A DNA stretch of 64,000 bases, taken from positions 1,550,001-1,614,000 of the forward strand of contig JAYWIR010000025.1 in assembly GCA_036172245.1 (NCBI GenBank), read 5' to 3'. The translations under genes were made by a program, and so were the position numbers. Position 1 is the stretch's first letter; every line of letters begins with the position of its first letter. The notes below the pieces were generated by a model. That model saw nothing but the letters and a program-made list of their open reading frames with translations, searched no databases and was not told the origin of the DNA. Shown one piece after another: positions 37,701-64,000 of the stretch. The stretch is from Raillietiella orientalis (taxonomy: Eukaryota).

Positions 37701-37849
37701 CCTACTGGGTTACTGAAGAGGTTCACCACGATACAGCGGAAGGCAGAGGAGAAAACGAAAAGAAAAAAAACGAAAAGGAAAACACTGTGGAGGGTCGGGA
37801 AGGGGTCACAGTCCGCTGGAAGGAGTCCTCTGCATCTTTTCCAAAATTT

Positions 37850-40975: not shown

Positions 40976-43030
40976 TTGCTGGAAAAAGTGCTGTGCCTCC
41001 GACTTGCTCCACACAACAGAAGATTTAGGACGCTGGTAACGTGCTCAGGAGAGCACCGGTCAATCAACTGCGCATCTTCTGGATCCGGGGACCAGCCTGC
41101 AAAGGCGCAGGATCAAGATGGGAAGGATAATAAGGTGAGATGGGTGAAGAGCCGCCTTGCGGATGTAAAGAAAGAGAATCCCGTCGCATTGCTTGCATAT
41201 CTGCCTCGAAGTTCACTCATCGCTCAGGTCCACTTAAACGAACGCTGGCGCAAGATGAGGAGGAATGTTCTCTGCGCAGTGCACCAATACGTTTTCCAAG
41301 AATGGCACCTCCATCAGATAAGATGATTCTCGGGTTTATAGTTTTGAGAATATTCTGAAGTTCAAAAGCATGACTCTTCGCTTTCATCATCGTGTAGAGG
41401 ATGTTGGGAATGGTTGCACCCATCCATGCAATTAGCGAGTTGTCTCCATGCCATCCGCGGAAGATTTGAAGCTCATCAACCATCCATGAATGAGCTCCGA
41501 GAAGCGTTCTTTTCCCGGACGATGAGAGAAAGAAAGAACGATTACCGAAAGCACACAACCATCGATACATAAATCGATCGATGATGTATCTTTCGAGGGA
41601 ACTCGAAGGAGATCTCGAAGGATGGAAAATCCATCATCTGCGTATGTCCGTTCGTGACACTCGTTATTTGCATGCATCGTGTACATGTTTTGGATATGTA
41701 CACCGACCTACGTGATAACAAATATGTTTCGCATAGTATTCTAACGAAATGTCGTCATGTAATCAGATGGACAGAGGCATTACGATGGGTTTCGACAGAA
41801 TCTCCTGCATCTTCGTTTCCACAAGCAGGAACCTTCGTGAATATGTCGAGACCACTTGTGGATCTTGTGAAATTATAACGCTTGCCCTTCCACGCGGCCC
41901 TTTAAGGAACACACAGGCTCGTACGGGACAGCTCAGCGTTTCATCTGCATATGAATACATGGAAACGTGCGAGTGCTTCCGAAATCCACGTGTTCGTGTG
42001 GACGAATCCATGTGCGCCGAAAATGGAGCCACAAGATTCACAGGTTAGATCCCATCACGATTGCCCGTGTGATTGCTGGAGAATGTTCTGGTTGATTCGA
42101 TACCCCGCTGAAGGTCGCGGTACCTTCGGGGAAACAAGAATTTGTCAAGAAGGTGGCAGAATGGAAGCAAACGCAACCCAGCACCGCAGCACTGGGACAC
42201 GGACTCCCAGGGAATTCTCTGGACAAACCGAATCTGCGGATCTCATGCAGATTTCTCTCTCAAATTCACTCCGGAAAAGCTTTCATGCTCCTAGGCATCA
42301 CTGGGATTTTTAAACATTCGTTTAAATACATAACAAGATAATCAACAACTTTTTAACTTTATTAATAAAATGTACGCCCCTGAATCTTAAAGCATTTATC
42401 TATTTCAATAATATCACTGTTGAAGAATATGCAGGTGACCATCTTCGGCAGAGAGGTTTTCAGGGATGCGTGGAGTGTTCACATATAAGGAGTGTGTGGT
42501 TGAATGTACACAGCATGTCCCATCTCGAGTAAGTCAAAGTAGTACATGGATCTATTCTAGAGTGCAACTACTGTTCCTATACAGTTCAAGCGGGTAGCTG
42601 AACAAGGTGGGCAAGCAGCAGTGCTTGGCTTTGCGGCCCACTACTGGAGGACGTGTCCTAAGAAAAAATCACGCACATTCGTCGTTTACTTATCGGTTCA
42701 CTTCATGGACGACAGCGGTCCCCACACGAACCGCAACATGGGGGCGCTACATAAAGTAATGTTTATTACGTATACTGCCTATCCACATGTAGCCCGTGAT
42801 TGCAATGTACCATCTATGCGACGCCGGCAGAACGATCGGCTCACCCGATATTTCCATGCATTTATGACGGGATTCAAGCAGCAGCGCTCCTACAAGAGAT
42901 TGCGACTCGAGTGCCCCTCTCGGTAGTGACGACTGCACATTCCAGTTTGCCAGTGACAGCTGAAACAGGGAGAGCGCAGATGCAAGACAACTCAGGCTCG
43001 CGGCCTGAAGAGCATCGCATGTGATCTGCG
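40976..43030 (+). mobile_element. BEL/Pao pol relic (RNase H to integrase core), interrupted
   Basis: VKSRLADVKK (KSRVAPLK-like), SDKMILGFI, HHRVEDV (NRVxEI-like), RMFWLI, GFAAH (DFAGP-like), FTSWTTAV (FTCxTTRAV-like), MRRR. Confidence 0.5.
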
Positions 43031-43107
43031 GACGCGGATTTTTGTTTTTCTCATTTTTTTTTTCTCTCCGGAGGGCAGCTCACGTGTTGCATGGACTACT
43101 TTGCGGA

Positions 43108-43467
43108 AGGTCCGACATACATCGTCTTATTTACTTTCAGTTTTTTACATAACATAAGGGGGGAGTACGCCAGCTCTCTCCATCTAGTGCCACGGTACCT
43201 CGAGCTCTCTTGACGCCGCGCCGTTTCCTCTAGGGGGGTCATCTGCGATCTTGTTGACGCAGGGACTCCCGTGGCCGAGGTGTGGTGCAACTCAGGCTAA
43301 CCTGCATCCGTTGGCCGGCCTTTCCAGAAGCTGCTGGCTGACTTTTCGAGGGGGGGGCGGCTGCGACGTGCAGAATCGCGATTCGTCCTTATCTCCTTGC
43401 TGCACCACCAAGCCGGGTTTTGCGCCAATTCGGGAGTCGATGCCCGCGACGTGCCGGCTGCAGAGCA
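43108..43467. repeat. Dispersed repeat, inverted copy of 63607-63943 (possible zf-RVT-like LINE relic)
   Basis: Colinear reverse-complement alignment over ~340-360 bp with substitutions and small indels; + strand reads PRCGATQANLHPL..SRSCW. Confidence 0.8.
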
Positions 43468-46400
43468 TCTCCAGCTCGTGCCGACGACAACCGGATCGTA
43501 AGAGAAGGGTGACGTCATGGGAAAGAGTGCTCAGCGAACGGAACCCGGTTCGAATGTTTTCGTCTTTCCTGGGTCTCCCCCTTTCACTGAGCGCTGCAGA
43601 CCTCAGTCGCAGAGCATGCGCCGAACTCAACGGGGTCCAGGTTTTTGACACATGCCGAAGTGCTCTTTCGGGTGCTGCCCATCTGGAGATTGTAAAATAA
43701 GCAAACAGACAAACGAACCGAAAAAGGAAAAAAATGAGCAGAGACTTGGTAAGAAAAGAATGGCAAACACGGGAGAAAGACAGGCGATGGAGGAGGGGTG
43801 CAGTTCGCAAGAAGCAAGGAGGTGCTCGACCACCTCTGGGCACTGAGGACCACAAAAAACGTTCGTGGAAAGCGAAGATGCTTTCGAGAGTGGGCAAAGC
43901 AGGTTTAGACAAGCTCCTGTGTTGACGGTTCGGAATGGCTCGGGACTCCTAGAGTCTCTTGCACACGGATGACCTTGGCCCGGGAGGGAAGCTGGAATGT
44001 AGACAGCCCTCAAGAATGAAAAGAGGGTTCCCGATCAAGGAAGTGAGTGAAAGCCTCACAATTCGCAGAAAAGGGAAAGGACGGCGCAGGCAGCAGAAAC
44101 ACAAAGTCTGGAGACGGGCGGAACTCATGAAGTTCCGTTCGAAATCCTCCTGGGGCACGAGTCGTGACGGGAAGCGGAGGGAACTCGACACGAAGCGTCC
44201 ATCCAAGAGGCGCTCGGACTGAATTCATATTATTTCATCTCGCAGAGGAGCATACTCTTCTGCGAGATGAAAGGGGTCCGAAAAGATCAAGAACCAGGAA
44301 AGGATGGAAACTGCTACAAGCTGAGCTTTGCCATCACTGACAACTACAACTGCAGTGTGGCTAGTCGGCTTCTCCTTGCAGTTCCCCGTGAAGCGCAGAG
44401 AGTCCTGAATTTGAGGACCCTCCAAAAAGGCACGCAAGCGGCACTCAGCTTCAGTCCCCATTTGGGGGAACACTGACCATGACTTCAGAGCGCTCCTCCG
44501 ATATCATCGCTGCTGCCGCCCAGAATTCCGCGGGGCGTGGACTATTTCCTCCAAGAGAACGGAGCACAAGTCAGCCTCCCTTTCGCGGAAATCTCCCTCT
44601 TTCGTCATTGACCCGGAATGCTTGATGACAGCAGATGAAGTACTCGAGTGCGCGGACCTGTTGCTGGAGGGTGGAATCGATCCGTGAACCGATGAAGGAG
44701 AAAGCGAGTTCATGGTGGGAAAAGATGTGGCTCTTAGAAGGCGATTACTGACGCCACTGGCCGAGAGATCTGACCTCAGAGGAAACATGGAAGAAATGTT
44801 CTCTCTTAGTTCACCTCAGGAAATGGCCCAGCTAGATGACCGTAGACTTTCTGCCTACGGTCATCCCGCTGGAGCGCGCTTGGAGGGGGGGGGGACATTT
44901 CCATGGCAAATTCGTAAGAGAAGACCCTTAGGCAGCCATAGAAGAAGGGATGAATTGTGATCAAAGGGTGTTGCAAAAATCCATTTTTTTGTCTCCGACT
45001 GTCCTCTTTGAACATGATGGTCAAAGTTGTCACATCGAGTTGCTGTCTACGCGCACGCTTTGCAACGAACCGTTTTAAAGACAAACGGGCGAGGCAACGT
45101 GGACTGTCCCTGACCAGCTTATAAGTCTGCCCTGGGAAACAGGAAGGAGCACTGAGAGCGTGCTGGCGGTGGAAGGTGTAGAAATGCAAACCAATAGATG
45201 CATCGCAACAGCGGATAGATGTAGACGAGTAGATGTGACCATTCGCAACCTGCCCGTAAAGTGCAGAGATCTCCGTGGATGTCACCACTGCTGTTGCTCC
45301 AGCACGAGGAGATTGGAATTGGGCGATGTTGGCGGGCTGGACCATTCCTTCATTCCTGCGTACGTGATGCCGTGCGACGCAGAATCCGTAAACGCTCTGA
45401 GCTGAACATTTTTGATCTTCATTCTGCATGAAGTCCACCAGAAATTTTTTCCTTCCATCGGAGATCTTCTAAATATGTAAATTTGTTTATTAGTAACTAA
45501 TAATTATTTGTTGTATTCATGCATCTGCTGAGGAAGTATTTCAGAGTTGTGTATGTGTTGTGCTGCGTACGGTGTATTCCGCAAGGCAGTATACGAAATA
45601 TTTACTGTGGATTACTCTTTGGTGGTCGCTCCCATGCAGCATCGCAATCACTTGGAAGTATCTCTGCTGTCGTTTCATTCCTATGCAAGTAATCTTCTGC
45701 GTGTGGTTCCCGTAAGTGATTCGGCGAGCATCGGGGATCGGAGAGGGAGATCTCGTGAGATTCTCTGCATACCCCCACCGAGATGGGGTCGGTTCCGTCT
45801 GAGTTTGCCTGTGCCTTTGCTGAATTTTTCTTCCCATGTTTCGCTCGCTTGGTTGTTTGAAGAACGGTGCAAAAGCGCCAAAACTCGATCCCGAACGCTC
45901 GTGTGTGAGAATCCTGTTCCGGAAATGGGGTCCATGCAACCCGGAAACTTAACAAGAGCACACATGCCACGAATCAAATCACACATGTTGCAAGCAGCTT
46001 CGCCAGTGGCCGAGCACCCATGCTCTAGGAAATTTGGGTGCTCTGATTCTGGATTCTTTGTAGTCTAAACCGAGTTTAGGTTCTGCGGAACATTTCATTC
46101 AGTGTGTAGGCACGGGTCAATTTTCCAATAATCTTCACTTTTCGAGTCCGTGAAAGCATTGATTTTGGAATTTTCCACAAGTCAGAACTTCCATTCAGTG
46201 ACTTCATTCCTCTGAGCTTGTTTACCCAACTTTTCGTGGGGACCGCAAGCGGAGCGTCAAACTGTGCACACACTGCAAACAGTCATCAATATAAATGTTT
46301 TGTCCTAATCCCGATGAAAGACAGCATGCTTGTGTAATACTGGTTTCTAAGTGTTCATTAACTACGGTCTTTTTCTTTGACCTTCTGGGGAATGCAGTCA

Positions 46401-46660
46401 CTTTTACTTCAGTGCATTGAACTATTGTGTGCTTAATTGGTTTGATTATAGTGTCCACAAGAGCACATAACTTGGGTGAAGATTAGCATGTCTAGGTAGA
46501 CCGATACTCGGGAACGGGCCAGTTTTCTACCGAGGATGCTGAAAGGTTCCATTTTTCCCCATCCCTCATTTTTCTGGGCAGCTCTAGAGCTTGCTGCCTG
46601 TATCTACGAACAAGTTCATGAATTACACCCGTCTTCGAGGCAACTCTGTAGTTTTGTAGT

Positions 46661-46666
<6 letters not shown>

Positions 46667-46708
<42 letters not shown>
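46667..46708. repeat. (GT)21 microsatellite
   Basis: Direct read of sequence. Confidence 0.95.
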
Positions 46709-46711
<3 letters not shown>

Positions 46712-48399
46712 ATTGGCGTTTTTCGAAAGCGGGAATTTTCTGGAATCGTTTCTTGGTCTCTTTGTCTGCCTTCCTATGATAAGAGTTGCAAAATTTTAGG
46801 AACCTTGAATTAACATCAGTGACAGATTCACGGATGCCCGGTACACTGTGCTTTGCTTATCTGTAAAGTGCGTTTCCTCCTCTCACTGCTTAAACGATCA
46901 ACCATCTTCCGAGTACCCCAGTCAGTCAGATTCATATAAACTGACGCCTTTATGATCCAGAAAGCGGATCGACTGAGTTGGTTCATGGCTAAAAAAAACA
47001 CTCGAAGAGTCATGAACACCTCTGGCAGTCTGTTAGTAGGTGCTTTGTTTAAAGCAATCTGCATTAGTAGGTGAGTCTCCGAGAAAACGAATATGTAATG
47101 TTCCTTTGCTGCAGTTGCTTTTGCGAAGATAAATTGAAACACATGGTGGTCGCGCGAGGTCAGATCTTCTCCCGTATGCCCAAATCTACTTGTGCCATTC
47201 CATCTTCATGAGTGCATTCTGTTTTAGAAAGGTGGTCTTCGTTTCAATAAAATGGAATCGAACCTTGCAGCTATCACAGGATGCTGGGTCCACAAGAACC
47301 CGTGGGATCATAAGCTTATGGGTTTCCATAGGCAGCTCCTATAACTCATAAGGCTAAATGGGTTCACGAAAACACTGTGTTAATGACAATCGCTTTCACG
47401 GTGATCGGAATCTCGCAATCTGAGCAAGATAACGCGGACGTTGCGAAACCAGGAATGACCGTTAACACTTTACAAGTATACTAATCTGATGCACGGAATC
47501 TAAAAATATGCTCCATACGAAGGTTGAACTCAAACTGGACGTTGTTTTGATTAGTGTCATTAATTTTCAGGAATGACTGAACTCCGTACGTAGCCCTATC
47601 TGGGGTCCCTATGGAAACTTTCTGCCTGCGTGTTTAAAAATCAGTTTCGCCCTCCTGATCATGAACTATTTTTGGATGATAGTTTCCCCAAAATACTCAT
47701 GTGGATTCACCACCATTTTACAAACGACCGTCGGTTTTACATACGTCATTTTTCTCATTGATGCGGATGCTGTGATAATGCATTATTACCCTGTACTTTC
47801 ATCAGATTCGGCTGTGATAATGGAACACTCATGAAATCGTATTCTCGTGATGAATTTCTTTGTGATGACCTGCGTGATGGAGTAAGATACCTGTGACATG
47901 AAGTATTTTGAAAGCATCCCGGATGAGGAAACGAGATGTTACTCTTTTTCGGGGGGAGCTATTTCTCCGTGTTTTGCTTTCGTTTTTATTGCAGTCATTG
48001 CTGATTGCTGGACCAAAACAAAAACACAGTTGCGGGTTCGAAATACAATAAAGCAATCATCGCAATGGCCGTCGAGTACATAACGAAGTTCCCGTGGAAG
48101 GGAAAGGAATGATCCAAAAAAATAGGAAACTCGACATTTCACCACGGAACGCATGAAGGGTCATCTGGAGACGGTCATTCGGGGTCTCCTCAGATTCCCA
48201 GAGAACGATTTCTGGGAAAAATTCGAATTTTCTTGTCAGAGTCTTCATCCCGGGCAGGTGCTGCTGTTACCTGCATGAATCCGCATCCCCGAAAGGTTCT
48301 TGGAACGCGGATTTCTTGTGTCCACTGCTAGACCTTTGTCTTCGCATCCTCATCATCTGTCGGAGAGTTGACTGCCGGCAAGAATCTGCGCGATAAATC

Positions 48400-50000
48400 C
48401 AGGAAAGAGAAGGGGACGAGAAGTCCCCGAGTAGGCAGCTGGGAGCAGAGAGGGCGAAAAAGGCTGGGGCAATTCGGAAGTTTCGAGATTCTGAGCTGAT
48501 CCGTGGCCAGACTCCGAGACTTCGCGGACAGGCAGAGGGGTGGACCGCTGAGTAGAGTGAGACTCCGGAATTGGGAACACGGATCGAAAATGACCCAGAG
48601 GACTCAGCAGCACTCGCGCGTTTCTTTGATCTTCCAAGAATCGGAACTCGTTCTTCGGGACTGCTGCTCTCCGTGCAAGAGGTGCTCCGTCAAAAGAACG
48701 GGCGCAGTTGGGCACCGGAGGCAGAGGTCATCCTCGAACGCGGGAAAAGATGCCAAAAATAAATGCAGAAGAAGCGCCACAGACGAAGAGGACGCTGGCC
48801 GCTTGCTGGAGTCCCAGTATGCCGAACTGGAGCACTGCCGTTTGCCGGGAACCAGTGAACGAAAGACTGCCTGCTATTAAACGGGGTTTCGAAATCATCC
48901 CTCCCCTCCTTTTCGGACCACCCACAGGTTAAGTGTTGCTTCTCTGCTGTCTAATAAGGTCTTTTCCGAGGTTTTTTTCCGACCTCGTCTCGACTGATCG
49001 ATCCGAAAGTTAGGCTCCACCATCCCTCGTGCGCCTCTTTGGAAAAAAAAGCACGGGGGCATGGACGTCCTGGAAGCCGGCGAAGATGCACGTTCGATTT
49101 TTTACTTTCGTGCGCCACAAGGAACTCGTTCAGCAGACGCGAAGGCGCCACCGTATCGAAGCCGCCACCGAGTGGTGAAATGGAGCGGAAAAAGCGCGGA
49201 CAGTCCAGAAGCGAGTGGATCAGCACAGAGAAGGCTGCCATGGATGGGTTTTATGGTGCGCTTCGCGTGTCCTCCCAAGTGAACGGGAAGCACGCGCAAA
49301 AGACTGGAAGACAAATACGTCATCGGTCTGAGGGCGAATTCCAGAACGCAGCAACGGATTTGATGGAAGTTTCCAGAAAGGACGAATCCCGAGACAGGCG
49401 ATCGAAAAGCAGTGATTCACGAAGGCATGACTTGCGGGAGCTCCGGTCAGCAATCAGCAATTTCGAGGACGCTGAGGACTCCCCGGAGAGGTGGTTCCAG
49501 GAGAGCTCGGAGATTTTCCAGAATGAAAACGAGGTGCTCAGAGGGTGCGAGAGCAGGGCGGACCCAGACGCAAGACAAACGCTGGTCCGATTCTCGGGAA
49601 CGGCGCGCCAAAGAGGGATTCCCGTCCATCTTTTCGGGATGCCTCCACCTAGAGAAGCTCCCAACCAAGAACGGAGAAATTCAGGGACTGGTGCTCCATT
49701 GACTGCTCCGTGAGGAATTCGGGAGCCGAGAACTTGTCGAGACCAAACCGCATGGAAATGGCCGCTGTCAGTAGGACGAATGAGCGTCTGCTGGCAACGC
49801 AATTTATTTCACGAGTGACTTTGCGTCTGCTGACACGGAAAGTGCATTTCCGGAGCGGCCATTCCGTCTCCCAAAGCGGTCGAAGTACCACGCGAGCTCT
49901 CAGAAATCGTGTGGTCCATTCGACCAAGTCTTGGATGGACCGGTCGAGAGAGCACGGGCGGAGAAGTCGACTCTAGCGCAAGCGGCACCACCAGAGGGGG
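48400..50000 (+). mobile_element. Possible BEL/Pao gag relic
   Basis: HFRSGHSVSQSGRS...HST near 49850-49925 resembles a decayed CxxCLxxGHxxxxC..H knuckle; lies upstream of the pol relic. Confidence 0.3.
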
Positions 50001-50810
50001 GCAGCAGACTCGCTCAGGGGGGATGATGATGAATTTAGAAAGAACGGAAGACTCCGAACGCGCGCGGCCTCAGATGATTCGGGGAGGGGGAACGGGAGCT
50101 CTTCTCCTCGCGAGCGGTTCTCCGCGACGGGTGCCGCCTCGAGGTTGGGAAGTGTTTGGGTGAGTGTGCATCACGGCCGTGCCCTCTCGTTTGCTCACCT
50201 TGGGTTTTTTTGCTCGCGGGGCAGGAGGAGGAGGTGGCTCGTGGTTTCCTGTAGCCGCTGAAGTTCTCCTCGGCTTTTCCCTCTTCTCCCAAACCCTATG
50301 GCGCCAGTAATTCCCATGGATGCTGGGTGCTTTTGGGGGTCACCTCGCCTTGCTTGCCCCTCTCCCTCGAACCTTGCCCGGAGCTTTTGGCGCCCAGAGC
50401 TTTTCTGTCGATCCGAACTAGGAAGGCGATGCGGGCCGGCCGACTCGGTCAAGCCACGGCCGTGTTGAAATCTCTTCTTTTCCATTCTTTTTCCATTTCT
50501 CTTTCTTTTCTTTTTTTCCTGCCTTTTGCACAGGATTTGACGTTTCCCTGGCGTTGCCGCATTCCTCGCGAGGCTGCGAATTTCCCGTCACGGCGATGAT
50601 TACTCGCAGCCCAAGGTGCCTAATTATACGTCTCGGAGACGGGATGGATCCATCGCAGCAGCAGCACGAGAGCGTCGGGCGGACCCCGGCGACGTCCTGC
50701 TCGCCGCGCACGCGCTCTCCTTCCGTGCCTTCGCCGCCGACCACGCCGTCCCTCTCCCGCTCCCTACCGAAAGACGGCGGACGTCCCCAGCAGCAGTACT
50801 CAAAGATTCT

Positions 50811-51105
50811 AAGGAAATCTCTTGCTCTCAGCAAGAATTCACCAATTCTTTCGTGTCTTCTCCCCCCCTCCTCCCCTTCCCACCGTAGGAGCCTCCGTGG
50901 AGACAGATGAGCGCAAGAATCTTCAGATCGGCCGGTTTCGAAACTCAGATCCGTTGCGAAATGGACCGCTTCCTCTTCACACGCGCGCGCACGCACCACA
51001 CACGAAAAACAGAAAGGAAAAAAAAAATGAAGGGGGGAAGGGGGAGAGGGGGGGAGAAGACACGAAAGAATTGGTGAATTCTTGCTGAGAGCAAGAGATT
51101 TCCTT
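50811..51105. repeat. Foldback / MITE-like inverted repeat with 60-bp perfect arms
   Basis: 50811-50870 is the exact reverse complement of 51046-51105; 175-bp spacer; no TSD visible. Confidence 0.9.
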
Positions 51106-54100
51106 GTCCCTGTAAGCAACGCGAGTATCTCAAAGGTCAGTTGCTCCAATGACCCAGAGGGTAGGTAGACCATTTTGGAATTATATCCTTGCTCTTATTT
51201 CATTATCTCCTCTCGCTGCAGGCGTCTGCTCGACTCAGGCATCCCGAATCCGCCGCCGGGATGGTTCCGAGGCACGTTTTCAACCCGGCTGGGAAGAGAC
51301 AGCGGAGGAGGGATGGAAGACCGGTACCCCAAAGGGAAGGAGCGAGAATTTCGTCCTCACAGGGAGCAGAGCGGAGAGAGAGGAGTGGAATCCAAAAGAG
51401 CGGAAACCGCGTCATGGTCCGCCCGCGTGACATCACCGGGGATCGCGGCGCGACGGCAGTGGCGGCCAGGTCAGTTTCCCTCCCTCAAGGACACGCCATC
51501 CTCGACTTCCCGGTGGGAAGGCTAGGCGCGGCGCCCGACTCGAGAGCCACTCGGCGGCGGGAATAAAGAGCTCCCGAAGGACCTCCCGGGACGGCGTCGC
51601 GCAAGGGGGAGGTCGCAAATGACCGGCGGTAAACGCGCCGCCGCCGTGAACCACTTGGGACCAATCCCGTCGGGAGAGGCGGGGATACCGAGCTGCGTCG
51701 CTCTGCTGCGCTTCGCCGCCGCCACCAGAAGCGGCTTCCTCTCCAGGGAGGAAAAAGAAGAGGGATGTGAGAGAAGGGAGGAGGAGGCGGAGGAGGAAAG
51801 GAGGGGAGAGGAGGACGACGAAAGAGTGAGAGAACGCAGAAGGCGTTTTCATGGCAAGATCATCTTCCCGCTTCGCCTATCCCTTCCGTTCCTCCCGGAA
51901 GAGTGGACAGTAAATCCTGCGAGCTCCGGGAAAGGTTCGAGGGGAGAGAGGGAGATAAGCAAAACGAGGCAACCCCCAAGAGCGCCGTTTTCTGCGATCT
52001 TGCGAAGGGTGTCAGGAAGCGGCGTTCGCGGGGCAACTTGCCCCCAGGGGCGAGCCGGTCTTCTCAGCAGCGAACGCCGTCTCCGTAACCTCCGCCCGGA
52101 AACCACCCATCTGCTCTTCTCTTCGTTCGGACCTTCTCGCGAAGGCGCACCAGCACCTCACCAAAGGATGGTCTTCCGATGTCTCCCTGATTTCAATCCA
52201 GCTCACTTGGTTGGACCTTTTCGCTTGGATTGGACAGCGGAAATGCCCTTGCACTGAGCCACGTCGTCATGGTGAGAACTAGATGGTCGGATGCTGCGAC
52301 ACCGGATGGTGTGGATGAGAGCGGCAACCGGCCCTCTCAAGGTCGCGTCCCCTTTCAGGCCCCAGAGGCTCCCTTCTGCGGATGCTCGGGGGTTTGCTTT
52401 CGACGCAAGGGATGGTGTGTGCGTGCCTGCTTTCTTAAGATGACCGTCACCATGGACGCAGGGGCACGGAAGATGATCTTGAAAATTGGTCACCACCAAT
52501 CCACAGAGCCTTCTCAAAATGGGAGGTTGGCCGGTGCGCGCTGTGGAGGCCCAGTTGACGGACTGCTGCTTTCGGAACGCGGAACGTGTTAGCGACGCCG
52601 GCGACCGCGAGATGCAGCCGCACGAATCACTGATGCTGCTTTGCTCGCCGTTGATGGCTCCCTCTCATCGCTCCCATTCGAAGGCAGCCATCGAAATTCC
52701 GAATCCCGTAAGCCCACAAAGCGGGAAGGGTGATGACTTCCTTGCGGGTGGCGCTTGGAATGCCCCAAGGAGGTGAACTCACACCTCTTCCCGTGTGTTT
52801 CCTTTTTTTTTTTTCTGTATTTGTGTTTTTGTCTCCATCCCGGTCCACCGGTTTGAATGCATGGTATCTCTGCGGCGCTCCGAGTTCCTCAAATCTCCTC
52901 GAGGGACGCTTCGATAGCGAGAGAGAAGAACGGATTTCCCGGTTCGGAGGGAAAGTCGAAGGAGACCTCGCGACCAGGGCAAGGGCTGCCGCCATCTTGG
53001 AAATTCTTGCGCGTGCGCGGAGCCATCCAGCTAGGCAGGATCCCCTCCATCCCTACGGACATTCGGAAATTCGTGCAGACTGGCCCGTTTCGCAAGCAGC
53101 CCCGGCCACGAGGACGCGCCGAAAGCCAGAGGAGTGCCAAGAAAGCCAGCAGGTAGGTTGGCGTCTCCTGAGGTGTCCATGGCTCCCTTCGGCGCGTGGC
53201 GCACGCTGCCTCAACACGTGGAGATGAGCGGAAGTGCGATGGCGGGCTCGGCCACGCCTTCTTCGAGGAGCCTAGCTGCTCCCAGGCTCCGCGACGGCTG
53301 CTGCCTTCAGAGCGACCGCAGGGGGATTTTGTTTTTACCTCGCTGACCACCGTCCTCTTGTTTACCGTGGACGAACCGCCTCGGCCGTGAGACTTCCGGT
53401 TCTCTTGGCTTCCGTTCCCTGCTGAAACCCCTCGTGAGCCGCGGGGACGACGGACCGCCGCAAGGAAGAGGACCATCGTTTCACAGAGACACGCAAGCAC
53501 GGCACGACGCCAGGATACGCCGGGTGGACCGCGACCTCGACTCATCTGAAAGGCCCCCATCCGAGGGACGAGGCCGCCTGGGCTGGCGCGCGGCTCCCGG
53601 CGTGTCGGAGCTCTGTGCCTCTGGGGTTGTCGGTTTTCTATGCGGTGGCGACATGCCAGCCGCATCTCCAGCCCTATTCCCCAACATTGCCGCTTTCGCT
53701 GGCGATGGGAGGGGCCGCCATTTCCATTCCGACGCGCGTCACCCGATGGCGTTTCGACCGCTAGAGTCGGAAGAGGGAGGCGGCACTTCGTTCCGGGAAC
53801 CTTCGCCCCCCTTTCCCTCCTTGCGGACTCGCTGCCCGAGGTCCATCGGAGACAGAGCCCCGGGACGGAGCCTCTCCGCGAAGGAGGAGAGGCCAGCGGA
53901 GGACAAGCGTCGGACCCGCGCAGCAAGGCGAGTCATCGGCGAGACGCCAGGCGCGTGAAGGGAGACCCCTCTGGAGCGCTGGCGAACCGTGAGCAGTCCC
54001 TGCTGACTCCGGCTCCAGGGGCAAGAGGGAGGCACCACCAGACAAGGGTTTACCCGAGACGTGTTGAGTCGGTTCTCGGCCGGAGCTCGCGCGTACCCCG

Positions 54101-55135
54101 GTAGTCCATCTTCTGTGTGTCGCAAGGGAAGGCACTACATCCGTGCCCAGCGGAGGCGTCTCTCTCCAGTAATTCCTTCCTGACCTTGCTGAGTCACACC
54201 TGCGTGGCGGCGAGGATGGCGCTGGAAGCACGAAGAGGCGGAGGGAAAGCGGGAGGAGGCCAGGCTGCTGTCCCTGCGCTGCTTCGGGGAGGACCAGGGA
54301 CGACGGAGCTGATGTCGAGGCCCGTCCACGGATCGATGCTCGTCTTCGGCGTGGTAGCGCCAACAACTCTCGGCGAGCATGAGAAGTGGCTGCGGCTGAG
54401 AGGACGCACGAAAGCCGCGGCCTCTGCCATTCGAGATCGCTGCTTCGTAAACGGCAGGAAAGAGCTGTCAGCGGGCGAAGAAGCTGTATCCATGGAGAAC
54501 ACCAGCCTCAGGTCGATAACACCCGCACGCCCTCGCGGCCGCCAAAAATGGGGAAATGAAGAGAGGGAGGGAGAGAGAGAGAAGCGGGGGGGGGAGGAAA
54601 GAGCAAAAAGGAATCCGGTAGGAGAACGAGGGGATGAGTGTCCACTGCAGTCGACGCTCGAGATGAGGGGAGGGGGCGGAGGGAAAGATGACACGATGGT
54701 CAGCCTTTGTTCCGAAACAGATTCACTCCTTCGGAGAAAACGCAGCCGGAAAGTGAAAGGAATGCGAAACACGGGAGAAGGAAATTGTTGCGAATCTCCC
54801 CGCGAGATGTGAACACTGTCGCGCTCGCTCGCTCCGCCGCCTATGGGCTCCTCTGCCACCTCCCTCCCCAGCGCGCTTCGATTGGGCAGCTGACGACCCG
54901 AAGGGATGCGCGAAAAGGGCAACGCTCGCGTCCTCGGCCCCAGCATCGGACGAACGCGCTTCCGATGGGGCACGGCATTTCTCGGCCCACACCCCCTCGG
55001 CAGAGCAACCGAAAGGCAGACGAAAGGGCTGAAAAATGAAAATCTGAGCAAACTGAAAACAAAAAAAAGAACAAAAACACCAGTGGCTGCAGTGATGAGA
55101 AACTCTTCTGAAGATCTTGGACGGAACAAAGGCCC

Positions 55136-55295
55136 CCTTCCTTCTCCTCTTCCTTCCTTCCATTTCTTCCTTTTCCTCCTTCCCTCCTGCTCTCTTCTTT
55201 TCTCTTCCTTCCTCCCTCCTTCCTCACCCTTCTCCTCCTATGCTTTTTTCCTTCCTCCTCCCCCTTTCTCTTCCTCCTCTCTTCTCCTTCCCGTC
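55136..55295. repeat. Polypyrimidine (CT-rich) low-complexity tract
   Basis: ~160 nt almost exclusively C/T; similar tracts at 38329-38396 and 58317-58463, purine tracts at 51750-51840 and 56995-57045. Confidence 0.9.
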
Positions 55296-56265
55296 TCGTC
55301 TCAAGGAGTCCCTGAATTCCCGCCTATCACGAGCCGCACGGTTTCGTCCTTCCCTCTGCCCCGCTCCGCCTCCGAGCCCATCGCGAAAAAGAGACGCGCG
55401 CGCGCGCGGAAAAGCTTCGCACGCCCTTGGACTCGCACGCGCGCGCCGCGCCAGCAGCAGCTTCCAAGGCCGCCAAAACTCCTCGACCGGGGCGACTTCC
55501 GGTCGCAACATCTTCGGCAGAGACGCGGAAGTGGAGAACCTTCTCCCCCCCTCCCAGCCCTTTCCTCGAAGAAAGGGAGGGAGAGGGTAAAGGGGCTCGT
55601 CGCCGCTTCTTCTCGGGACGGGACGTCCGATCCCCGCGAGCGGTGGAGACGCCCAACCCCCTAAAGGTAAACCCTGGAGTCAGGACAGAAGCAAGACCAA
55701 GCGTTGTCTGAGGGGAGAAAGCGGGGAAGGTGGCACCACATCGGGTGAGGTCCTCTCCGCCGAGGAGGGAAGGGGAGAGGAGCGTCAAGCGGAACAGCCA
55801 CCTCCCACGAGGAAGCGGCGCGCCCCGTCCTTCCCCGGAGCGAGCGCCTTTCGGCTCCCTGGCTCCACGGAGGACCTCCTTCCACGACGTGGGACCGCCG
55901 CCGCACCAATGAGCGCCCGCCCACCCGCTCCCAAGGACGCTTTCAAGAGCGCTCCCCCCTCCCGGAAGCGGAGAGGGGGGGGAGGAGCGCCCCTCCGCAG
56001 CCCAAGGTAAAGGTCGCGGAGTTAATGGAGCGGATCGGGGAGGAGCGGGCGGTCTGCCGTGGGCGTCCCGGGAAGGAACCGGCGCGCGCGCCCCTCTCCG
56101 TACCCTTCCCTTTCAGAAACAAAGGGTAAAGGGAATGGGGATACGCCCCAGGACTGGCACGACCGACGGAGCCGTGCCCTGTCCATCGGGACGAGACTTT
56201 CGGAGAGAGGGGCAGCCGTAGATCCCCCTCTCCCCTTGACTATATCATCTAGGCCTTTCAAGTCA

Positions 56266-56334
56266 GATATTGGTAGTAGCATTGCTGATTCTGTTAAAAA
56301 GGTAGGAAAAGAAGGTGTGATCACTGTTGAAGAG
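56266..56334 (+). pseudogene. groEL: 69-bp fragment of a bacterial (Wolbachia-like) chaperonin groEL
   Basis: Translates to DIGSSIADSVKKVGKEGVITVEE, the conserved VGKEGVITVEE segment of GroEL/Cpn60. The IADSVKKVGKE variant matches my recollection of Wolbachia GroEL (DIGNSIADSVKKVGKEGVITVEE). AT-rich codons. Confidence 0.85.
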
Positions 56335-56394
56335 CTTCCATTCTACTACAACAAACTTTATGATATTTTATATTACAATGGCTTTTTTGTTTCT

Positions 56395-56457
56395 GCAGAA
56401 GTTGAAAACATTTTAAAATTTTCCGACGACTTTAAAGATGCAAAAACCGTCAAACTG
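56395..56457 (+). pseudogene. uvrD: 63-bp fragment of a bacterial UvrD/Rep/PcrA helicase gene
   Basis: Translates to AEVENILKFSDDFKDAKTVKL, the segment between motif III (YxWRGA) and motif IIIa (LExNYRS) of SF1A helicases; AT-rich like the adjacent groEL piece. Confidence 0.7.
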
Positions 56458-58316
56458 CCCCCTTTTTGCCCCTTTCCTCCCCGACAGGCATTTCGAAGGC
56501 ACGGTGGGCAGGTGGTTGAGGGAGGGAGGGGGAGAAGGCAGGGCGGACCGAGACTGCCGCTCGCCTCCTCCCGCCTTCTGAGGACGCCTTGGCAGCGGGA
56601 GAAGTGGGGATCGAGCTGTCGCAGCCTTCGAACCGCGGCAGCACCGCCGGCGCACACGACCTTGAAGCTTCTTTCTCCGTTTCCTTTGGGGAAGGGTGAG
56701 ATCCAGACACCCAGGGATGTATGAGAGGGATACCCCCCCTGCTGGACCTGGAAGCTTCTTGCATCTTTGGGAGATGAAGATGCACAGACTCTCCTCAACT
56801 TCGCAAGGAGACCAGAGGCTACCCTCAGTCGGTTGCCGCCGCCCTTCTGCACCCCAGTGGGTCCGAGCAGCGGCCGCCCGCCGGCAGAGACGCCACCTGT
56901 TAAGACGAGCCTCCGCTTCCTTCATCTTCTTTTCCTGGCACTCCCGACAAGCGCCGCCTTCTCCTTCAAGGAAACTCTCACCGAGTGGTGCATGAGAGGC
57001 GAAAGGGGAAGAGGAAGGGAGGAGGAGGAAGAGGGAGAGAGGAGGCCGCCTTCGGGCTACGACGACATCACCCAGTAAGACCAGTCTCCTCCTCCCCCCT
57101 TCCTCCTTTTCCTTTTCGTCTTTGCCTCTAGCGCGGCCACCCTTCGGTTACGGTTGCGCCCGCCCGAAGGGGCCGCCTCCAGCGGCCGTCGGAAGGTGTG
57201 AGCCGCCGCCGCAAGCTCGTCGAAGGTGGAGGCGTCATCTCGCATCCTCGGCCGTGGTCTCGACACAGCCTCCTTCCGTCGGTGGATTTCACTTGGGATT
57301 CGACGGTCACCTCGTCCCCCAGCGTCCGAGGTTGCGATGTCTTCCTCGCCTCCTCCGGGCTTGGTCTTTCCGCGCGGCTGCTACTTCTTTCCGAACGGGC
57401 CCGTGGTCCCTCGCTGCTGGCATTTCCCTCCCCAGGACCGGGAATCCCTTTGAAGAAGCCCTTGCTGTTCCGGTGTCCCTCGCGATCCTTCCTCCGCTTC
57501 CCGCGGGCAGCTGCCCTCTGGGTCGGCTGCGCGCCTTTTCGGCGTGGGCACGCCTCCAGCGGCACCGAGGGACATTCAACACGCGCGACTGGGGTGCGCA
57601 CACGCCTGTTGTTTTGTGGAATGCTTCTCCGAGATAAACCTCCGGGAAGGAGGGAAGTGAGGTCGCTTCACCGGAGGAAATAGCCGCGGAGATGCAAAGG
57701 CAGATGAAGTTCTACCGCTCTGCCATCTCCCGCGCCGAGATGAGGGCCTCCACGGTTTCGGATAACTTTCGAGCGCGGCGAGTGCCAGGAGGAGGGGCGC
57801 CGTGGCGAGGAAAGTCCCGGTGCCATCCCACTTCCTTCCATCTCTCACTAGCCTCCCGATCCGCAGGCGTCCGCTGCTCCGTAACGGACCGGGAAAGAGG
57901 TAGAGGGAAGGAGGAGCTGCCATAGGAGACCAAAGAAATCGCACCCACAAGGAGCTGATGCTCCTGCGGCCTCGACGATGGACTCCCACACCCGAGTGCG
58001 CAACGGGTCGTAGCTCGTGGGACTCCAAAGGTCAGCCGGAGGAGGAGAAGCGCACAGGCGCCGACGTTGCAGTTGCCAAGGCGGGAGAGCGCCACGCGCT
58101 CGCATGATGCATGTGTCCGGGACACGTGCAGTGGCGCGGGCGCGAACCGCTCCGCACAATATTCACTCGCCCTCGGGTAACCGGCTCCTTTCCTTCCCTC
58201 CAGCCTTGGATTTCAAAAGCCACGCTCCCAACAAGGGCTGGGGGCCACAGTTTCAAGCTCGCTCGCAACCTCGAACCGAGTCCGACCTCAAGCATACCAG
58301 ACGACGTTCGAAACTG

Positions 58317-58463
58317 CCCCTTCCTCTTCCTCACTTCTTTTCCCCTTCCTCCCCTCTTCCTCTTCCTTCCTTCTTCTCTTTCTCTCTCCTCCTCCCCTTC
58401 CACTTCCTCCTTTTCCTCTTCTTCCTCTTCCTCTTCCTCCCCTCTTCCTTCTTCTTCTTCCTC
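58317..58463. repeat. Polypyrimidine (CCT/CTT) tract
   Basis: Direct read of sequence. Confidence 0.9.
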
Positions 58464-58994
58464 CAAGGTCTCCTGTTTCGATCCAGTGTTTCATGCAACT
58501 CACAAACATCTCAGAATGCAGCATGCGGCATGCCAAGATGGGATGCTGTGTGCAGCAACTCCAAATGAAATGCACATGCGGGCATATCAAGATCAAACGT
58601 GGAAAATCAGGTACAGATCGTTCTCTGTGAAAGTCTGGATCTATTCAGGGAAACTGACATCATCAGAAGCAGCTGCTCGTGATGGGACCTTTCCCTCGCA
58701 TCAGAATGCAATCGAAGACAAAGAGCTCAGGATCCCAGCAGCCGAAACCATAAATTTTCCTCTTCGTTACATAACGTCCGCATCGGGGATGTGTTGCGAT
58801 TCCTACGAATGAAAGCATCCATCGCCACACCTTAGAGACGGTGACCAAGGCTCATGTTGCCCGTATCAACGGGGCAATACCAGTAGTACGGTAGTACGAA
58901 CCTTGAAACTCGAGCATCGGTTCAGTCATCTGTTCCTTCAATCAAGAAAACAAGCCAAGCGTCGTTTCTCTTTCGAAAAGCACGGGAATGAGGA

Positions 58995-59082
58995 AGTGTT
59001 CTCGAAACACGAGCTGCTGCGAGTAAGAGACAGTGGATAGTGTTCTCGAAACACGAGCTGCTGCGAGTAAGAGACAGTGGAT
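58995..59082. repeat. Perfect 44-bp tandem duplication
   Basis: agtgttctcgaaacacgagctgctgcgagtaagagacagtggat x2 (58995-59038, 59039-59082). Confidence 0.95.
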
Positions 59083-59899
59083 GATTTGAACTTTCGATCC
59101 ACCTAATGGACATTAAAAGGTCGAACGAGTGTGTGTGCCATTGTAGAAGAAGGAACCAAGGAGATTGTAGGCAAAGACAGCGAGCAATGCAATCTTCCCA
59201 AATGGTCACACTGTCGACTTAACCGTCCGACTGCCATCCACATTGGTCAAATCGTTTCGTAAGAGCATCAGTGGAGACGCATGGCACATGCAGATAAGCA
59301 CATGCCATTGGAGGAAAGCGTGCAGCGGTGGTAAACAAGTGGTTAACGAGCATAGAGTGAACCATCCGACCTGAATGCCAAAATATTGAATTCAGAGGGA
59401 GGAGGTCATTGTGTGTGATAATCACAGAGACGTGGTATCAAGGATAAGATTATAAGGAGAAACCCATGGCAACTTGGCAAACCATCTGTGGTTCAGGGCG
59501 CTAGGAGTCGCTTTTTGTTCGACTTGTAAGAGAAGTGTTTTCTTGCGTCTTCACCTTGGTCATCTTCAGCGAGGGAGAAGCATGTGTTCCCCTCTCTTCT
59601 AAGAAAGCCTTTGAAAGGAGAAATCTCCAGACAAACAGGAAATGAAGGCGAAATTTGAAAACACACACACTTCCTAGCAGGAGGAAGGAGACGTCAGCAT
59701 TCTAGAATTTTTAGTCTGGCGAGCTTAGAAGCCCCTGGGGCAATCGCCGTTTGCTGTTTCATGAAGTCCGAGGCTGTGGTAGCTGTTGCAGCTCGACGGC
59801 CATCCAGTGGGGGGTGAACGGTACTTCTGAAAATCAAAGGGAACATTTGTCCTCGTATTAATGCCTGACAACCGGGGTGTGTGAAGCGCACTTGTTCGT

Positions 59900-62400
59900 A
59901 TTCCTGAGAAGAGAAAGAGATGGCGGGAGGGAGGGGAGCATCTCTCACAAGGGAACGCGAGTGAAAGAGCCCACATTTCCCTGTGAAAGACGAAATCGGG
60001 TTAGAGGAAGTCGGGAAATAAGAGAGAATCAATCATTCGCTTCAGACGGCGAAAATAAAAGATCCTTCGTATGACCAGATGGGTGATTTTTCATCTGCTC
60101 TTCGTTCGGAGAGCAATGGAATGGTGTTGTCTCTTCGCACTCCCTCTTCATCAGAGTTGGTGAACGTCAAAGGGGAACTCTTTGGGATCATCCTTTTGGA
60201 ATGCCCAATTCTTGCGAAGGCGTCCCCGAAATGCAGTCTCTTGTAAACACGACTGCTTTCGGACGTCGCAGGTCCAAGGTCTTCCAGCACTATTCGGAAT
60301 CGCAAGAGAGGAATGCATGGATAGGTTGCTGCTCCCAGTTCACGGAAACTTCGAGCGAGGAGGGTGGGTCGAGACGACAGACAGTAGGCGCGGACTCTTC
60401 GCCCAGGAGCTCACAACATCTGGGGCTCAGGTTTCGTGCCAGTAATCTCAAGAGAGGGAGGAAAGATGAGGTTACGCTTCGACCGCAATGTCACGTTCTC
60501 TTTGGCTCTCACTACTAGCAGGGACCTGGGTTTGTTCCTCCGCTCAGGGTCCGAGAGAATGGGGAGCCTTACTTTTTCACGTTTTCATGGCGGGCGCGCA
60601 ACACCTCAGCGCATCCCATTGCAGTTTTCTCAAGACGGTCTCTGGAAATTCCAGGGCTGGGAGAGGTGAGAGGAAACTTCTGGCATTCGGAAAGGCTTGC
60701 ATAACTCGAGGTGACCAAGGAGGAAACACGTGGAATGGCATCCTTGCGAGAACGATCTTTCACAATCGGGTAGCAAACGGGATCTGAAACCAAACAGAAG
60801 ATAAATGCGGACAATTTACGTGGAGTGTTTGTTCGTGTCTTTTTTTCTTTTTTTCTTTTCTGTCCCACTCCTCCCCCCCTTTTTTTTCAGTAGTTAAAGG
60901 CAGCACATGAAGCAAGAAGTGCTCATGGTCATGGAAACGCAGCATGTCGAAATTAGTGCAGCTGTCCCTTGAAACGACTGCACAAATCAGTTGGCCACAA
61001 GAATAAGAGAGAGAAAAAACGAGAGACTGCAATCATGAGGAGGGAAAAAAAAAATGTTAAAGGCATTGATGAAGGATGTGGAATTTCGAGGTGCAGCTTT
61101 CAAGAGGGGATTTTCCAGCCAAACTGGAAAAATCCACCCTTCCTGCACGAGAATAGTGACGTCATGGAAGATATCTATCTAGCTTGTGACCACCTGGCCT
61201 AGCCGGGGTCCTGCATTCAGGGGAGGAATTCTCGTCGGAAAAGAGGGGAGGAATCCTTCCTTCCGGCGCGCCTTCCGACGGGCGCGTGAGGCGCATCAGG
61301 GAGACACATTTCCTGAGGGGCAAGACCCCTTTGCTAATCTCGAGGCAAACGACACACTTCCAGGGACGAGACTGCGTCACCCAATGCTACTAGATGCGTG
61401 CCAGATTGGAAACTGCAACCAGCGACGGGAAGAAGCAAAGCAAAAAGATAGAGGAGACCACCCGTAAGAAGGAAACACGAGAGTTTCTTTCCTTGGCTAC
61501 CCTCTGACATTCAGGCGAGCCCGATGGTCGAGTTTTCTTCACTTTCATCGACTCCTGTAATCGGATAACACCGACCGATTCGAATTCCCGTCCTCTGCCA
61601 CACTTCCCACTAAACAGCCGCTCACCGGAACCGAATAGGTGAGAAGAGGAGCAAAAGGCTATTCAGCCTACGACGTAAGAGTACGGGGGAGGTGCGAGGA
61701 ACGCCTGGAAAAAAGACGGGAGAAATGGGAAGGAAAGGAAAGGGTCGCGTAGGTGGCGCTTGGAAACGAGTCTTTCCAGACGACGGGAGCTCTCAGACAG
61801 CTGAAGAAGAACGGGGATATTTTCACGTGGGAATTTCCCCGTTCCTTGGTTCGTTTCGCTCTCCTGTTGTGGTGGAGCTCCGACAGGATTCCATCTTTGA
61901 TCCGCCTGGCCCTCGGACAGGATTCCTCCTACCCAAGGGCAGGTGGGTGCTGCGAATTCACGGGAGCAACCGCACAGTCTCGCGGTGTGGGGGTCTGTAG
62001 AGAACCTACCGCTTTTCTCATGAGAAGGCCAAGCCAGGCAGTTGGGCCCGGGATGTGCAACCGACAAGTGGTTCCCGAAAAAAGCATTTTCTTTCAGACG
62101 GTCCAGCTCGAGTGACTTACAACATCTCGTCTCTCGTTGACTATGACCTTGGACTCGTTACTAACAACCTCTAAGTGGCAATTTCTGCTCTTAGCAATTG
62201 ATGAAGACCTTTTCCCCCATGGCCAGGAGCCGCATAGTTCGGAGCTTCTCAGATGCTAGCACGCTACCCAGCACACCCATGAGATCCCCGTTGCCTTCTT
62301 TCACGCCTTCCTCATCCTCCGACCGGCAGAAATCAAAGAGATGCTGATTGGACCGGAATCCAGCTCTGATCCAGAGAGCGCACAAAAAAACCTCTCCATT
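59900..62400 (+). mobile_element. BEL/Pao pol relic (RT to RNase H), interrupted
   Basis: VFQHYSE, PVISREGGKMRLRFD (PVxRxxKxxxxRxVFD-like), LRSGS, HPIAV, WKRV and LLWWSS (LWWxGP-like), in order. Confidence 0.4.
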
Positions 62401-63606
62401 AACATGGAGTAGTACTTTTTTTCAAAGAAATGAGAAGGAGGGAGGGAGAGAGTTTGCCACGAGATAGAATCTCTTACTTCTCTGCTTTATGGCTTTGTTT
62501 CTTCCAGGGACCACTTTGCAAGGGATGCTTTCGTGCATCTTCAAAAACAGTTTTATCACGCCACAGATCTCCCTTACGAGCTGCTTTTCTTAAGGCTCGC
62601 AGAATCCCGTCCACTCTACTTCCACCTTACCCGTAGTGGGCATGCTCTTTACTGTACGATGATCCCCATTCTAAAGATTCGTTGCTGCTGCGTAGGACCC
62701 GACTAGCATCAGGATGCCACTGCTTCTCTGTCTCGTGCGAATCCAGATAGAAACTTTGCAACTTTTCCGCAATCTCGAGCAAATGCCTGCAGAGGCAACG
62801 ACTATTTCTTTGCATTCCCGCTGCTCTCATTTCATGAAAATTTGTCCTCCAGGATTCCTAATCCGGGAACCTTTCTAATAAATTTCCGGAATGCCTCTTG
62901 AGAATTCTCACAGGAGTGTCCTTTTTCGTGTTTGCATTGAAGGCAGAATGTATTCCCCTGGAGCGCTCCTGATTTTTGACCTACAAGGAATCAGGCCGCT
63001 GTGGTTTGAATCATCCCAAGATGCAGCATCGCCACTCGAGCGATCGTCGTCCTCAGCACCACACTTCCACTCGACGTTCCTTCGAAGTTCGGAAATAGAC
63101 CACTAAAGCTGTGCTGGAGTCCACTCAAAGCCATCACTCTTCTTTTTTTTCCATGCAGCCTTTTCCGAATCGAATCCTTGAAGTGGACCCTCTACCTGTC
63201 CCTCTTTTCAAAGTCAGTGCACAAGCTCTCTCTTTTCAAAGCTTGAGGGTGCTGTACAATCCGGAAAGACGGCGGAAAGAAAGCATGCAGAGTGCAGTAA
63301 CTTGGGAACGATCTGTCTTGCTCCCATTCTCAGTTGTCCTTTTGGTTTCCAGTACCTTCTGCTACATCTCAATGGCATCCGCTGCTAATTAGCGATGCTT
63401 CTCGGCTTGTGATCTCGCTCCAGCACCTAGAGAGCTGTTTTCTGGAAACATGAATTTTAACTTGAAATAAATAAAAATGGCCGTCATTGCATGGAATGAA
63501 AGGAACCCTGGTCATCATATCTTCAGTCAAGTCCTCATCTCAGTGATGCGAGACAAGATGGTGCCAAGCATTTCAAAAGCTGCTTAGAAGATCTAAGAGC
63601 TAGCGG

Positions 63607-63943
63607 TGCTATGCAGCCGGCACCGACTTCCGACTTGGTGCAAAACCCGACTTGGCGGTGCAGCAAGGACGAATCGCTATTCTGCACGTCATTGCCGGCC
63701 CTCCTCGAAAAGGCAGCCAGTGGCTCCTGGAAAGGCTGGCCAACGGATGCATGCCAGCCTGAGTTGCACCACACCTCGGCCACGGAAGTCCCTGAGTATC
63801 AACAAGGTCTCTGGTGACTCTCCGGAGGAAACGGCGTGGCGTAAAGAGAGCTCGAGGTATCGTGACACTAGAGAGAGCTGGTGTGCTCCCCCCTTATGTT
63901 ATGTAAAAACCTGAAAGTAAATTAGACGATGTATGGCGAACCT
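63607..63943. repeat. Dispersed repeat, inverted copy of 43108-43467
   Basis: Reverse-complement alignment, e.g. gagttgcaccacacctcggccacgg vs ccgtggccgaggtgtggtgcaactc. Confidence 0.8.
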
Positions 63944-64000
63944 AATCGTCGGCTCCTTGTGACCCCCTGGGGAAACCGATGTAGCGCCAAAAGACCTCGA

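Follow-up and report, generated by a model that had tools for sequence, protein, structure and literature searches.

Wolbachia DNA has been found within host nuclear sequence in several forms. In Brugia malayi, where such nuclear Wolbachia transfers (nuwts) have been described, a pair of neighbouring nuwts that stem from separate regions of the Wolbachia genome is on record, and an RNA-mediated route of transfer has been raised in the same account (PMC3849323). The large insertions known from insects, for instance from Drosophila ananassae, comprise large parts of the Wolbachia genome that are often duplicated (PMC4299567). Among organelles, complex or mosaic nuclear insertions of mitochondrial DNA (NUMTs) and of plastid DNA (NUPTs) combine several fragments of different donor positions and orientations at one nuclear site. 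As set out for such insertions in PMC6215612, blunt ends or 1-7 bp of microhomology are hallmarks of non-homologous end joining, and concatenation, which is placed at a double-strand break, was concluded to precede or accompany integration. On a smaller scale, a review reports human loci at which a single numt of 36-93 bp was inserted, with the idea that DNA of a cytoplasmic genome acts as end-joining filler (PMC3798261), and Helitrons are described as stitching short unlinked fragments together in one element by filler-DNA capture during break repair (PMC6544945). Here, we describe an AT-rich island of 222 bp (positions 56236-56457) that is made up wholly of four abutting Wolbachia pieces and lies in a stretch of 64,000 nucleotides of contig JAYWIR010000025.1 from Raillietiella orientalis. 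This whole stretch is referred to below as the window.

Like the nuwts of B. malayi, the island would, going by the assembly, represent Wolbachia DNA within host nuclear sequence, but here four pieces of 29-70 bp abut with 0-1 nt overlap, and the host is an arthropod. It resembles the complex NUMTs and NUPTs in uniting several fragments of different donor positions and orientations at one site and in the nature of its inner junctions, whereas its donor is a bacterial endosymbiont with a genome of more than 1 Mb rather than an organelle, and its pieces are much shorter than those of the worked example in PMC6215612 (four fragments, 3,573 bp). The short human numts are of the same size scale; those are, however, single mitochondrial fragments, while the island is a four-part bacterial concatemer. 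Helitron capture requires a transposon, of which no sign was seen in the window. Finally, in the D. ananassae insertions, too, DNA passed from Wolbachia into a host, but they involve large genome parts instead of four unlinked scraps in 222 bp. Nuwts and complex organelle insertions are thus known, and a four-part concatemer of 29-70 bp Wolbachia pieces is, as far as our searches show, new. In the part of the literature that was searched, no description was found of a multi-fragment Wolbachia insertion with pieces of less than 100 bp, although supplementary nuwt tables may list such cases.

Piece limits and identities were determined by local short-word BLAST together with ungapped displays against Wolbachia loci. 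A groEL-based scan of species-representative genomes had yielded four Wolbachia-lineage loci, and their genomes were then searched with the island. The resulting layout, including the two outer junctions, is as follows.

56216..56235, no strand: left junction; C-rich flank unrelated to Wolbachia, ending ...CCCCCTCTCCCC at 56235, with virB4 identity at background left of 56236
56236..56264, minus strand: piece 1; 29-nt virB4 fragment (type IV secretion ATPase, CagE/TrbE/VirB family), antisense in the island
56265..56334, plus strand: piece 2; 69-70-nt groEL fragment in sense orientation, covering GroEL residues about 160-182
56335..56394, plus strand: piece 3; 60-nt intergenic fragment whose source directly precedes pheT, on the strand of that gene
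56395..56457, plus strand: piece 4; 63-64-nt fragment of a UvrD/Rep-family helicase gene in sense orientation, with T56394 common to pieces 3 and 4
56458..56477, no strand: right junction; C-rich flank unrelated to Wolbachia, starting CCCCCTTTTTGCCCC at 56458, with helicase identity at background right of 56457

An initial annotation of the window, made by a model from the letters and a list of open reading frames, had already divided the island into four pieces, and its limits proved good to 1 nt when compared with the BLAST alignments (56236-56264, 56265-56333/4, 56335-56394 and 56394/5-56457). The piecewise BLAST search that it proposed was run, and each piece was found to match a separate, unlinked Wolbachia locus. 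The alignments support its idea that the island consists of several unlinked 30-70-bp Wolbachia fragments, which would have been ligated at one site in non-bacterial DNA. The description of the island as a mosaic of gene fragments could not be upheld for piece 3, which is intergenic DNA and no fragment of a gene.

The GC content of the island is 0.329, as compared to 0.692 and 0.632 in the adjoining 500 bp on the left and right, respectively, and to a window mean of 0.497. A recount reproduced exactly the 68 G or C residues previously counted by hand over the 210 positions 56241-56450. The right side is somewhat lower than the flank values of 67-73% quoted at the same time; in 100-bp windows, flank GC ranges from 0.59 to 0.74. 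Across the 64-kb window, 27 low-GC clusters were detected (200-bp windows with GC below 0.38), so that low GC by itself is no mark of foreign DNA here. The GC-rich block at about 50-58 kb holds a single low-GC cluster, namely the island.

Piece 1 is identical at 27 of 29 positions to locus L098 (2487-2515) and to L093 and L094, and at 22 of 23 to L095. Its source lies inside an open reading frame (ORF) for an 801-aa VirB4/TrbE ATPase (L098 2372-4777, minus strand; PF03135 match with E=2.3e-56). The peptide SDLKGLDDIVK, read earlier from the minus strand at 56236-56265, indeed represents the true coding sense, as it matches ...IDLKGLDDIVN... in this protein. Piece 2 shares 68 of 69 positions with genomes G033 (L096 12767-12835) and G039 (L100), 67 of 69 with G001 and G002, and 88-89% with G003 and G004; the source ORF (L096 12288-13949) has a PF00118 match. 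The GroEL identity of the encoded peptide was confirmed by a search of the Protein Data Bank (PDB), in which it aligned with GroEL residues 154-186 at a best E of 3.9e-4. Mitochondrial Hsp60 matched more poorly (E=0.012), and the possibility that the host's own Hsp60 is the best match therefore fails, bacterial GroEL giving the better fit. The similarity to GroEL ends directly after VITVEE. All 23 residues are identical to GroEL of Wolbachia strain wCfeT, and when the GroEL frame was compared with a collection of 5.8 billion proteins, 25 of 59 candidates passed, all of them GroEL and mostly named Wolbachia.

Piece 3 aligns in two collinear blocks, with 24 of 26 identities at 56335-56360 and 29 of 30 at 56365-56394 (the latter to L089), and compared with the reference strains the spacer between the blocks lacks a net 6 nt. 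The donor of piece 3 is a strain variant. In L097, the source (3228-3287) is located between a 93-aa ORF (2902-3183) and a 778-aa ORF that starts at 3306 and carries the PheT domains B3_4, B5, tRNA_bind and FDX-ACB. Rfam and tRNA scans of the piece 3 source loci revealed no Rfam family and no tRNA. The 93-aa ORF of L097, which belongs to G033, shows a weak match to a phage minor tail protein that remains below the cut-off (E=0.0048; 17.7 bits versus 39). Piece 4 is identical at 63 of 64 positions to G033 (L096 5102-5165) and G002 (L085), and at 62 of 63 to G004. Its source ORF (L096 4245-6251) matches PF00580 with E=4e-88 and also PF13361. The assignment of the encoded peptide to UvrD stood up as well: 20 of its 21 residues recur in a 638-aa Wolbachia helicase with PF00580 (P0006, residues 257-277), and in a large protein database 14 of 17 candidates passed, all with PF00580 and, where named, from Wolbachia. 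A PDB search with the right half of the island gave no helicase among its three matches at E<=10. Likewise, Pfam returned no relevant family for the 78-aa frame that spans the island or for three short peptides, which can be explained by the peptides being too short.

Taken over all four pieces, DNA identity to Wolbachia amounts to 93-99%, and outside each piece the identity to the donor falls to background within one base. In whole-genome BLAST searches, E-values were 7e-29 for the groEL piece, 5e-26 for the helicase piece, 1e-12 for piece 3 and 7e-6 for piece 1, and the match of each piece recurs at the same gene in many Wolbachia genomes. Together, these E-values and this recurrence exclude a chance match. 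The island was matched by 59 of 60 genomes of the genus Wolbachia. Among the other genomes of the family, 16 of 38 showed a match, in all cases with at most 88% identity and, among the matches listed, only for the groEL and helicase pieces. These comparisons indicate that the island derives from Wolbachia rather than from another bacterium or from host genes, and that the donor is a strain not yet sampled, with G033 and G039 as its closest matches.

In individual Wolbachia genomes, the sources of the pieces were placed as follows.

G033: piece 1 at 833 kb, piece 2 at 168 kb, piece 3 at 599 kb, piece 4 at 160 kb
G014: piece 1 at 1002 kb, piece 2 at 700 kb, piece 3 at 402 kb, piece 4 at 771 kb
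G004: piece 1 at 625 kb, piece 2 at 715 kb, piece 3 at 306 kb, piece 4 at 1084 kb
G011: piece 1 at 1064 kb, piece 2 at 440 kb, piece 3 at 600 kb, piece 4 at 818 kb

In complete Wolbachia genomes the four sources are thus 7.7 kb to hundreds of kb apart. The distance between groEL and the helicase gene is 7.7 kb in G033, 71 kb in G014, 366 kb in G003 and 369 kb in G004, a variation that shows how rearranged the genomes of this genus are. The earlier view that the sources are unlinked was therefore borne out, pieces 1 and 3 being located elsewhere again. Within L096 (G033:C1:155000-172000), groEL and the UvrD-family helicase gene are on the same strand. The joined four-piece arrangement was present in none of the 60 Wolbachia species genomes, and no alignment in these genomes crossed the junction between pieces 1 and 2 or that between pieces 3 and 4. 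Some alignments of piece 3 do reach 9 nt over the remaining junction into the end of piece 2, via an imperfect likeness (GTTGAAGAG versus GTAGAAGTCAC). As far as can be judged from these genomes, the arrangement cannot be part of a living bacterial chromosome.

Within the island, the four fragments abut at 0 bp, and one of them is antisense to its gene while another is intergenic. At least two donor fragments of different position or orientation are thus directly adjacent, as is the case in complex organelle insertions. Counted by the method of PMC6215612, microhomology at the inner junctions is 0, 0 and 1 nt, which falls within the range of blunt ends or 1-7 bp given there, and it remains below the at least 2 nt at each switch that would be expected of microhomology-primed copying. 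One base at the second junction can be read in two ways. Base 56334 is G, where all seven groEL loci compared have A, and alignments in other genomes extend to query position 119; this base would be either a synonymous GAA>GAG variant of groEL or a single filler base. Relative to the best references, the island carries eight substitutions. Five of these, counting 56334, are in coding pieces, and three of the five are synonymous. Both virB4 mismatches in piece 1 concern synonymous Leu codons, the groEL piece has an Ala>Ser change that is present in strain wCfeT, plus the synonymous Glu codon if 56334 belongs to groEL, and the helicase substitution affects a site that varies between strains (Gly, Asn). 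Since these differences look like variation among living Wolbachia and not like decay, the age of the insertion is not readable from the sequence. The insertion had previously been called recent because both peptides lack stops. The DNA identity of 93-99% is a better argument than this absence of stops over 21-23 codons, although age as such is not measurable here.

The base-sharp junctions between one antisense, two sense and one intergenic piece point to ligation of short double-stranded DNA fragments, and because this anatomy matches that of the complex organelle insertions we read the island as the product of fragment ligation by classical end joining. With a probability of roughly 0.72, the island is a nuwt with the architecture of a complex NUMT and without function, formed when short double-stranded fragments became linked in a row and were ligated into a broken chromosome. 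According to this reading, Wolbachia would have lysed in the host germ line and its DNA would have been broken down into double-stranded fragments tens of base pairs long. These fragments would then have entered the nucleus, where a break in a host chromosome presented the target. Four of them, drawn from unrelated regions of the bacterial chromosome, would have been joined end to end and to both broken host ends, presumably by the enzymes of classical non-homologous end joining, and would thereby have acted as filler in break repair. The insertion would have taken place in the germ line and would be real outside the present assembly, and the insert would since have evolved neutrally. End-joining repair had also been put forward in the initial annotation; the junctions fit this proposal, while the joining itself is a step that we infer.

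Several points weigh against fragment ligation in the germ line. Firstly, the microhomology counts relate to the three inner junctions, as analysis of the outer ones needs the empty site, and both the junctions and the place of the insert in the host chromosome rest on one assembly. Furthermore, in four of five complete genomes (G033, G014, G011 and G004, but not G005) the four pieces share one orientation on the donor chromosome, an outcome that random ligation gives one time in eight. In addition, all eight substitutions could be natural Wolbachia variation, leaving no sign of ageing in the host genome, and the same picture would arise from a newly formed chimera that had taken up DNA of an unsampled Wolbachia strain living in the animal.

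Further Wolbachia DNA in the window was searched for with the five closest Wolbachia genomes at E<=0.01, and no match was obtained in 1-20000, 19901-39900 or 39800-56235. The sole match in 56458-64000 was a gapped, CT-rich one with 25 of 26 identities at 56662-56687, 205 bp to the right of the island, to G033 1,003,776-1,003,800; it was seen with one of the five genomes (E=0.0096). This match is probably due to chance, but it may be a fifth Wolbachia scrap. Large open exons that belong to a dual oxidase (Duox) gene are located at 4535-7688 on the plus strand, on the same contig and 50 kb from the island. The 452-aa Duox exon at 4931-6286 reaches 71% identity to an ostracod Duox, 69% to that of a second ostracod and 66-67% to those of decapods, with none closer in the collection. 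From this likeness to crustacean Duox we conclude that the host is an arthropod, probably a crustacean. In the assembly sequence, the island is thus enclosed by flanks unrelated to Wolbachia on both sides, and the contig also carries an arthropod Duox gene. Both flanks are GC-rich with CT/GA-rich low complexity and contain the same motif families, which fits one locus that was interrupted in place.

The flanks had been regarded as a badly decayed transposable element (TE). This could not be substantiated, as none of 19 long ORFs had a TE domain, nor had any of 97 stop-free segments (50 aa or longer) in the region 52.5-60 kb, and no second copy was present in the window. The sole match in this domain scan was below the cut-off and to an unrelated family. 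When 54-59 kb was compared with the window by self-BLAST, low-complexity CT-rich matches were the only ones obtained, and no second flank copy was seen. The flanks may be a non-autonomous or unknown repeat. At about 50000-58300, they are part of a block with 58-66% GC in a region of about 47% GC, which shows CT/GA-rich low-complexity runs and numerous overlapping open frames in all six frames, and for which no Pfam family was found. Elsewhere in the window, open frames at 23697-24071 (minus strand) and 30707-31150 (plus strand) encode a long, near-identical peptide (...LCRDSVDPRWQPQRRFEALLPARRPHS...) in opposite orientation, which indicates a repeated element at both places. No Pfam family was found for two overlapping frames scanned there, and an Rfam scan of the window gave 0 families.

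The frame on the plus strand is open through the whole island (78 codons from 56230), a feature that the initial annotation does not mention, and the same open frame extends over both flanks to give 232 codons at 56026-56721. As evidence of a gene this open frame was rejected. In 200,000 simulated four-piece mosaics of random Wolbachia DNA with the same lengths, 11.8% kept at least one of the six frames open and 2.1% a given frame, and of the frames in the flanks 35-39% stay open over a stretch of 222 nt. In view of these frequencies, and because the frame reads piece 1 antisense and piece 3 as non-coding DNA, its openness is no evidence of coding. The same considerations, an antisense piece 1, a non-coding piece 3 and 11.8% of mosaics open, argue that the island is not a designed or selected fusion. 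By eye, the groEL piece contains a splice-donor-like sequence at 56300-56310 (AAG followed by GTAGGA, with the boundary between them), and the junction of pieces 3 and 4 (56380-56398) creates TTTTTTGTTTCTGCAG, after which a splice-acceptor-like boundary follows 95 nt downstream of the donor-like site. Joining the two would break the open frame.

How, then, does fragment ligation compare with other explanations? The strongest of these is a technical chimera. DNA of an animal infected with Wolbachia would have been amplified or made into a library, bacterial bits would in the course of this have been ligated or template-switched between host fragments, and the assembler would have kept the result. 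We consider this unlikely, though it deserves to be taken seriously. The differences from the references would suit an unsampled living strain, as they show no sign of decay, and no second, independent data set containing the junction came to light, a 36-mer across the junction of virB4 and groEL having 0 matches in metagenome contigs. Moreover, the closest Duox relatives belong to small crustaceans, and low-input amplification is common for such animals. Yet ligation chimeras join library-sized fragments and not four pieces of 29-70 bp, and a consensus assembly normally outvotes single chimeric reads. A chimera would also usually join unrelated loci, whereas the unusual GC-rich, CT/GA-rich sequence carries on at both sides of the island, and apart from the doubtful 25-mer the 64-kb window holds no further Wolbachia DNA at E<=0.01. 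The co-orientation of the pieces leads to a different alternative, in which a repair polymerase in a germ-line nucleus, by templated insertion of the polymerase-theta type or by replication template switching, made four jumps on the same strand of one Wolbachia chromosome that lay beside the broken host chromosome. If true, the bacterial genome itself would have been the repair template. Such jumps would agree with the imperfect likeness that the groEL piece shows, at its end, to sequence upstream of the piece 3 source. Copying pathways, however, normally prime on at least 2 nt, and exact microhomology at the switch points is 0, 0 and 1 nt. Co-orientation would arise by chance with a probability of 1/8, and the genomes in which it is seen do not count as independent. 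We regard copying as improbable.

The same co-orientation could be expected if one large Wolbachia insert had later lost nearly all of its interior by deletion, and G011 even has the cyclic order of the island. G011, however, is less closely related (86% for piece 1, 91-96% for piece 2, 82% for piece 3 and 89% for piece 4), and in the two closest complete genomes, G033 and G014, the cyclic order is P1, P4, P2, P3. Since three deletions of about 10^5 bp would also have to leave clean remnants of 29-70 bp, with no other Wolbachia remnant nearby, a collapsed insertion seems very unlikely. Even less credit can be given to a reading in which a Helitron or Pack-type element captured filler DNA from older nuwts at other places in the host genome and then transposed to the present site. 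Such elements are described as stitching short fragments of unlinked loci (PMC6544945), and the flanks had been taken for a TE. The domain scan and self-BLAST described above nevertheless speak against it, no TE domain having been detected at 52.5-60 kb and no second copy of the flanks in the window, and the filler-DNA model of PMC6544945 goes with end junctions of 2-13 bp as opposed to 0-1 nt here. That the island forms part of a host coding exon, finally, is scarcely credible. One frame is open over all four pieces and both flanks, but as mentioned above this is frequent in the flanks and in random mosaics, the orientation and nature of pieces 1 and 3 do not agree with coding, and no Pfam family was found for the 232-aa product.

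There is no settled view of how Wolbachia DNA enters the chromosomes of its hosts; for the large insertions in insects, the route must run via DNA. Mosaics like the present one have possibly been overlooked because the usual screens discard matches this short. For instance, the screen described in PMC4046930 retained only matches above 100 bases, and with a cut-off of about this length each piece of the island taken singly would be missed. It is a tentative suggestion, on the doubtful side though likelier than copying from a Wolbachia template, that mosaics of endosymbiont fragments of less than 100 bp constitute a common, overlooked class of transfer. If the island is real and not unique, symbiont DNA would arrive in germ-line nuclei in a degraded state, as pieces tens of base pairs long, and screens with length cut-offs near 100 bases would undercount transfers.

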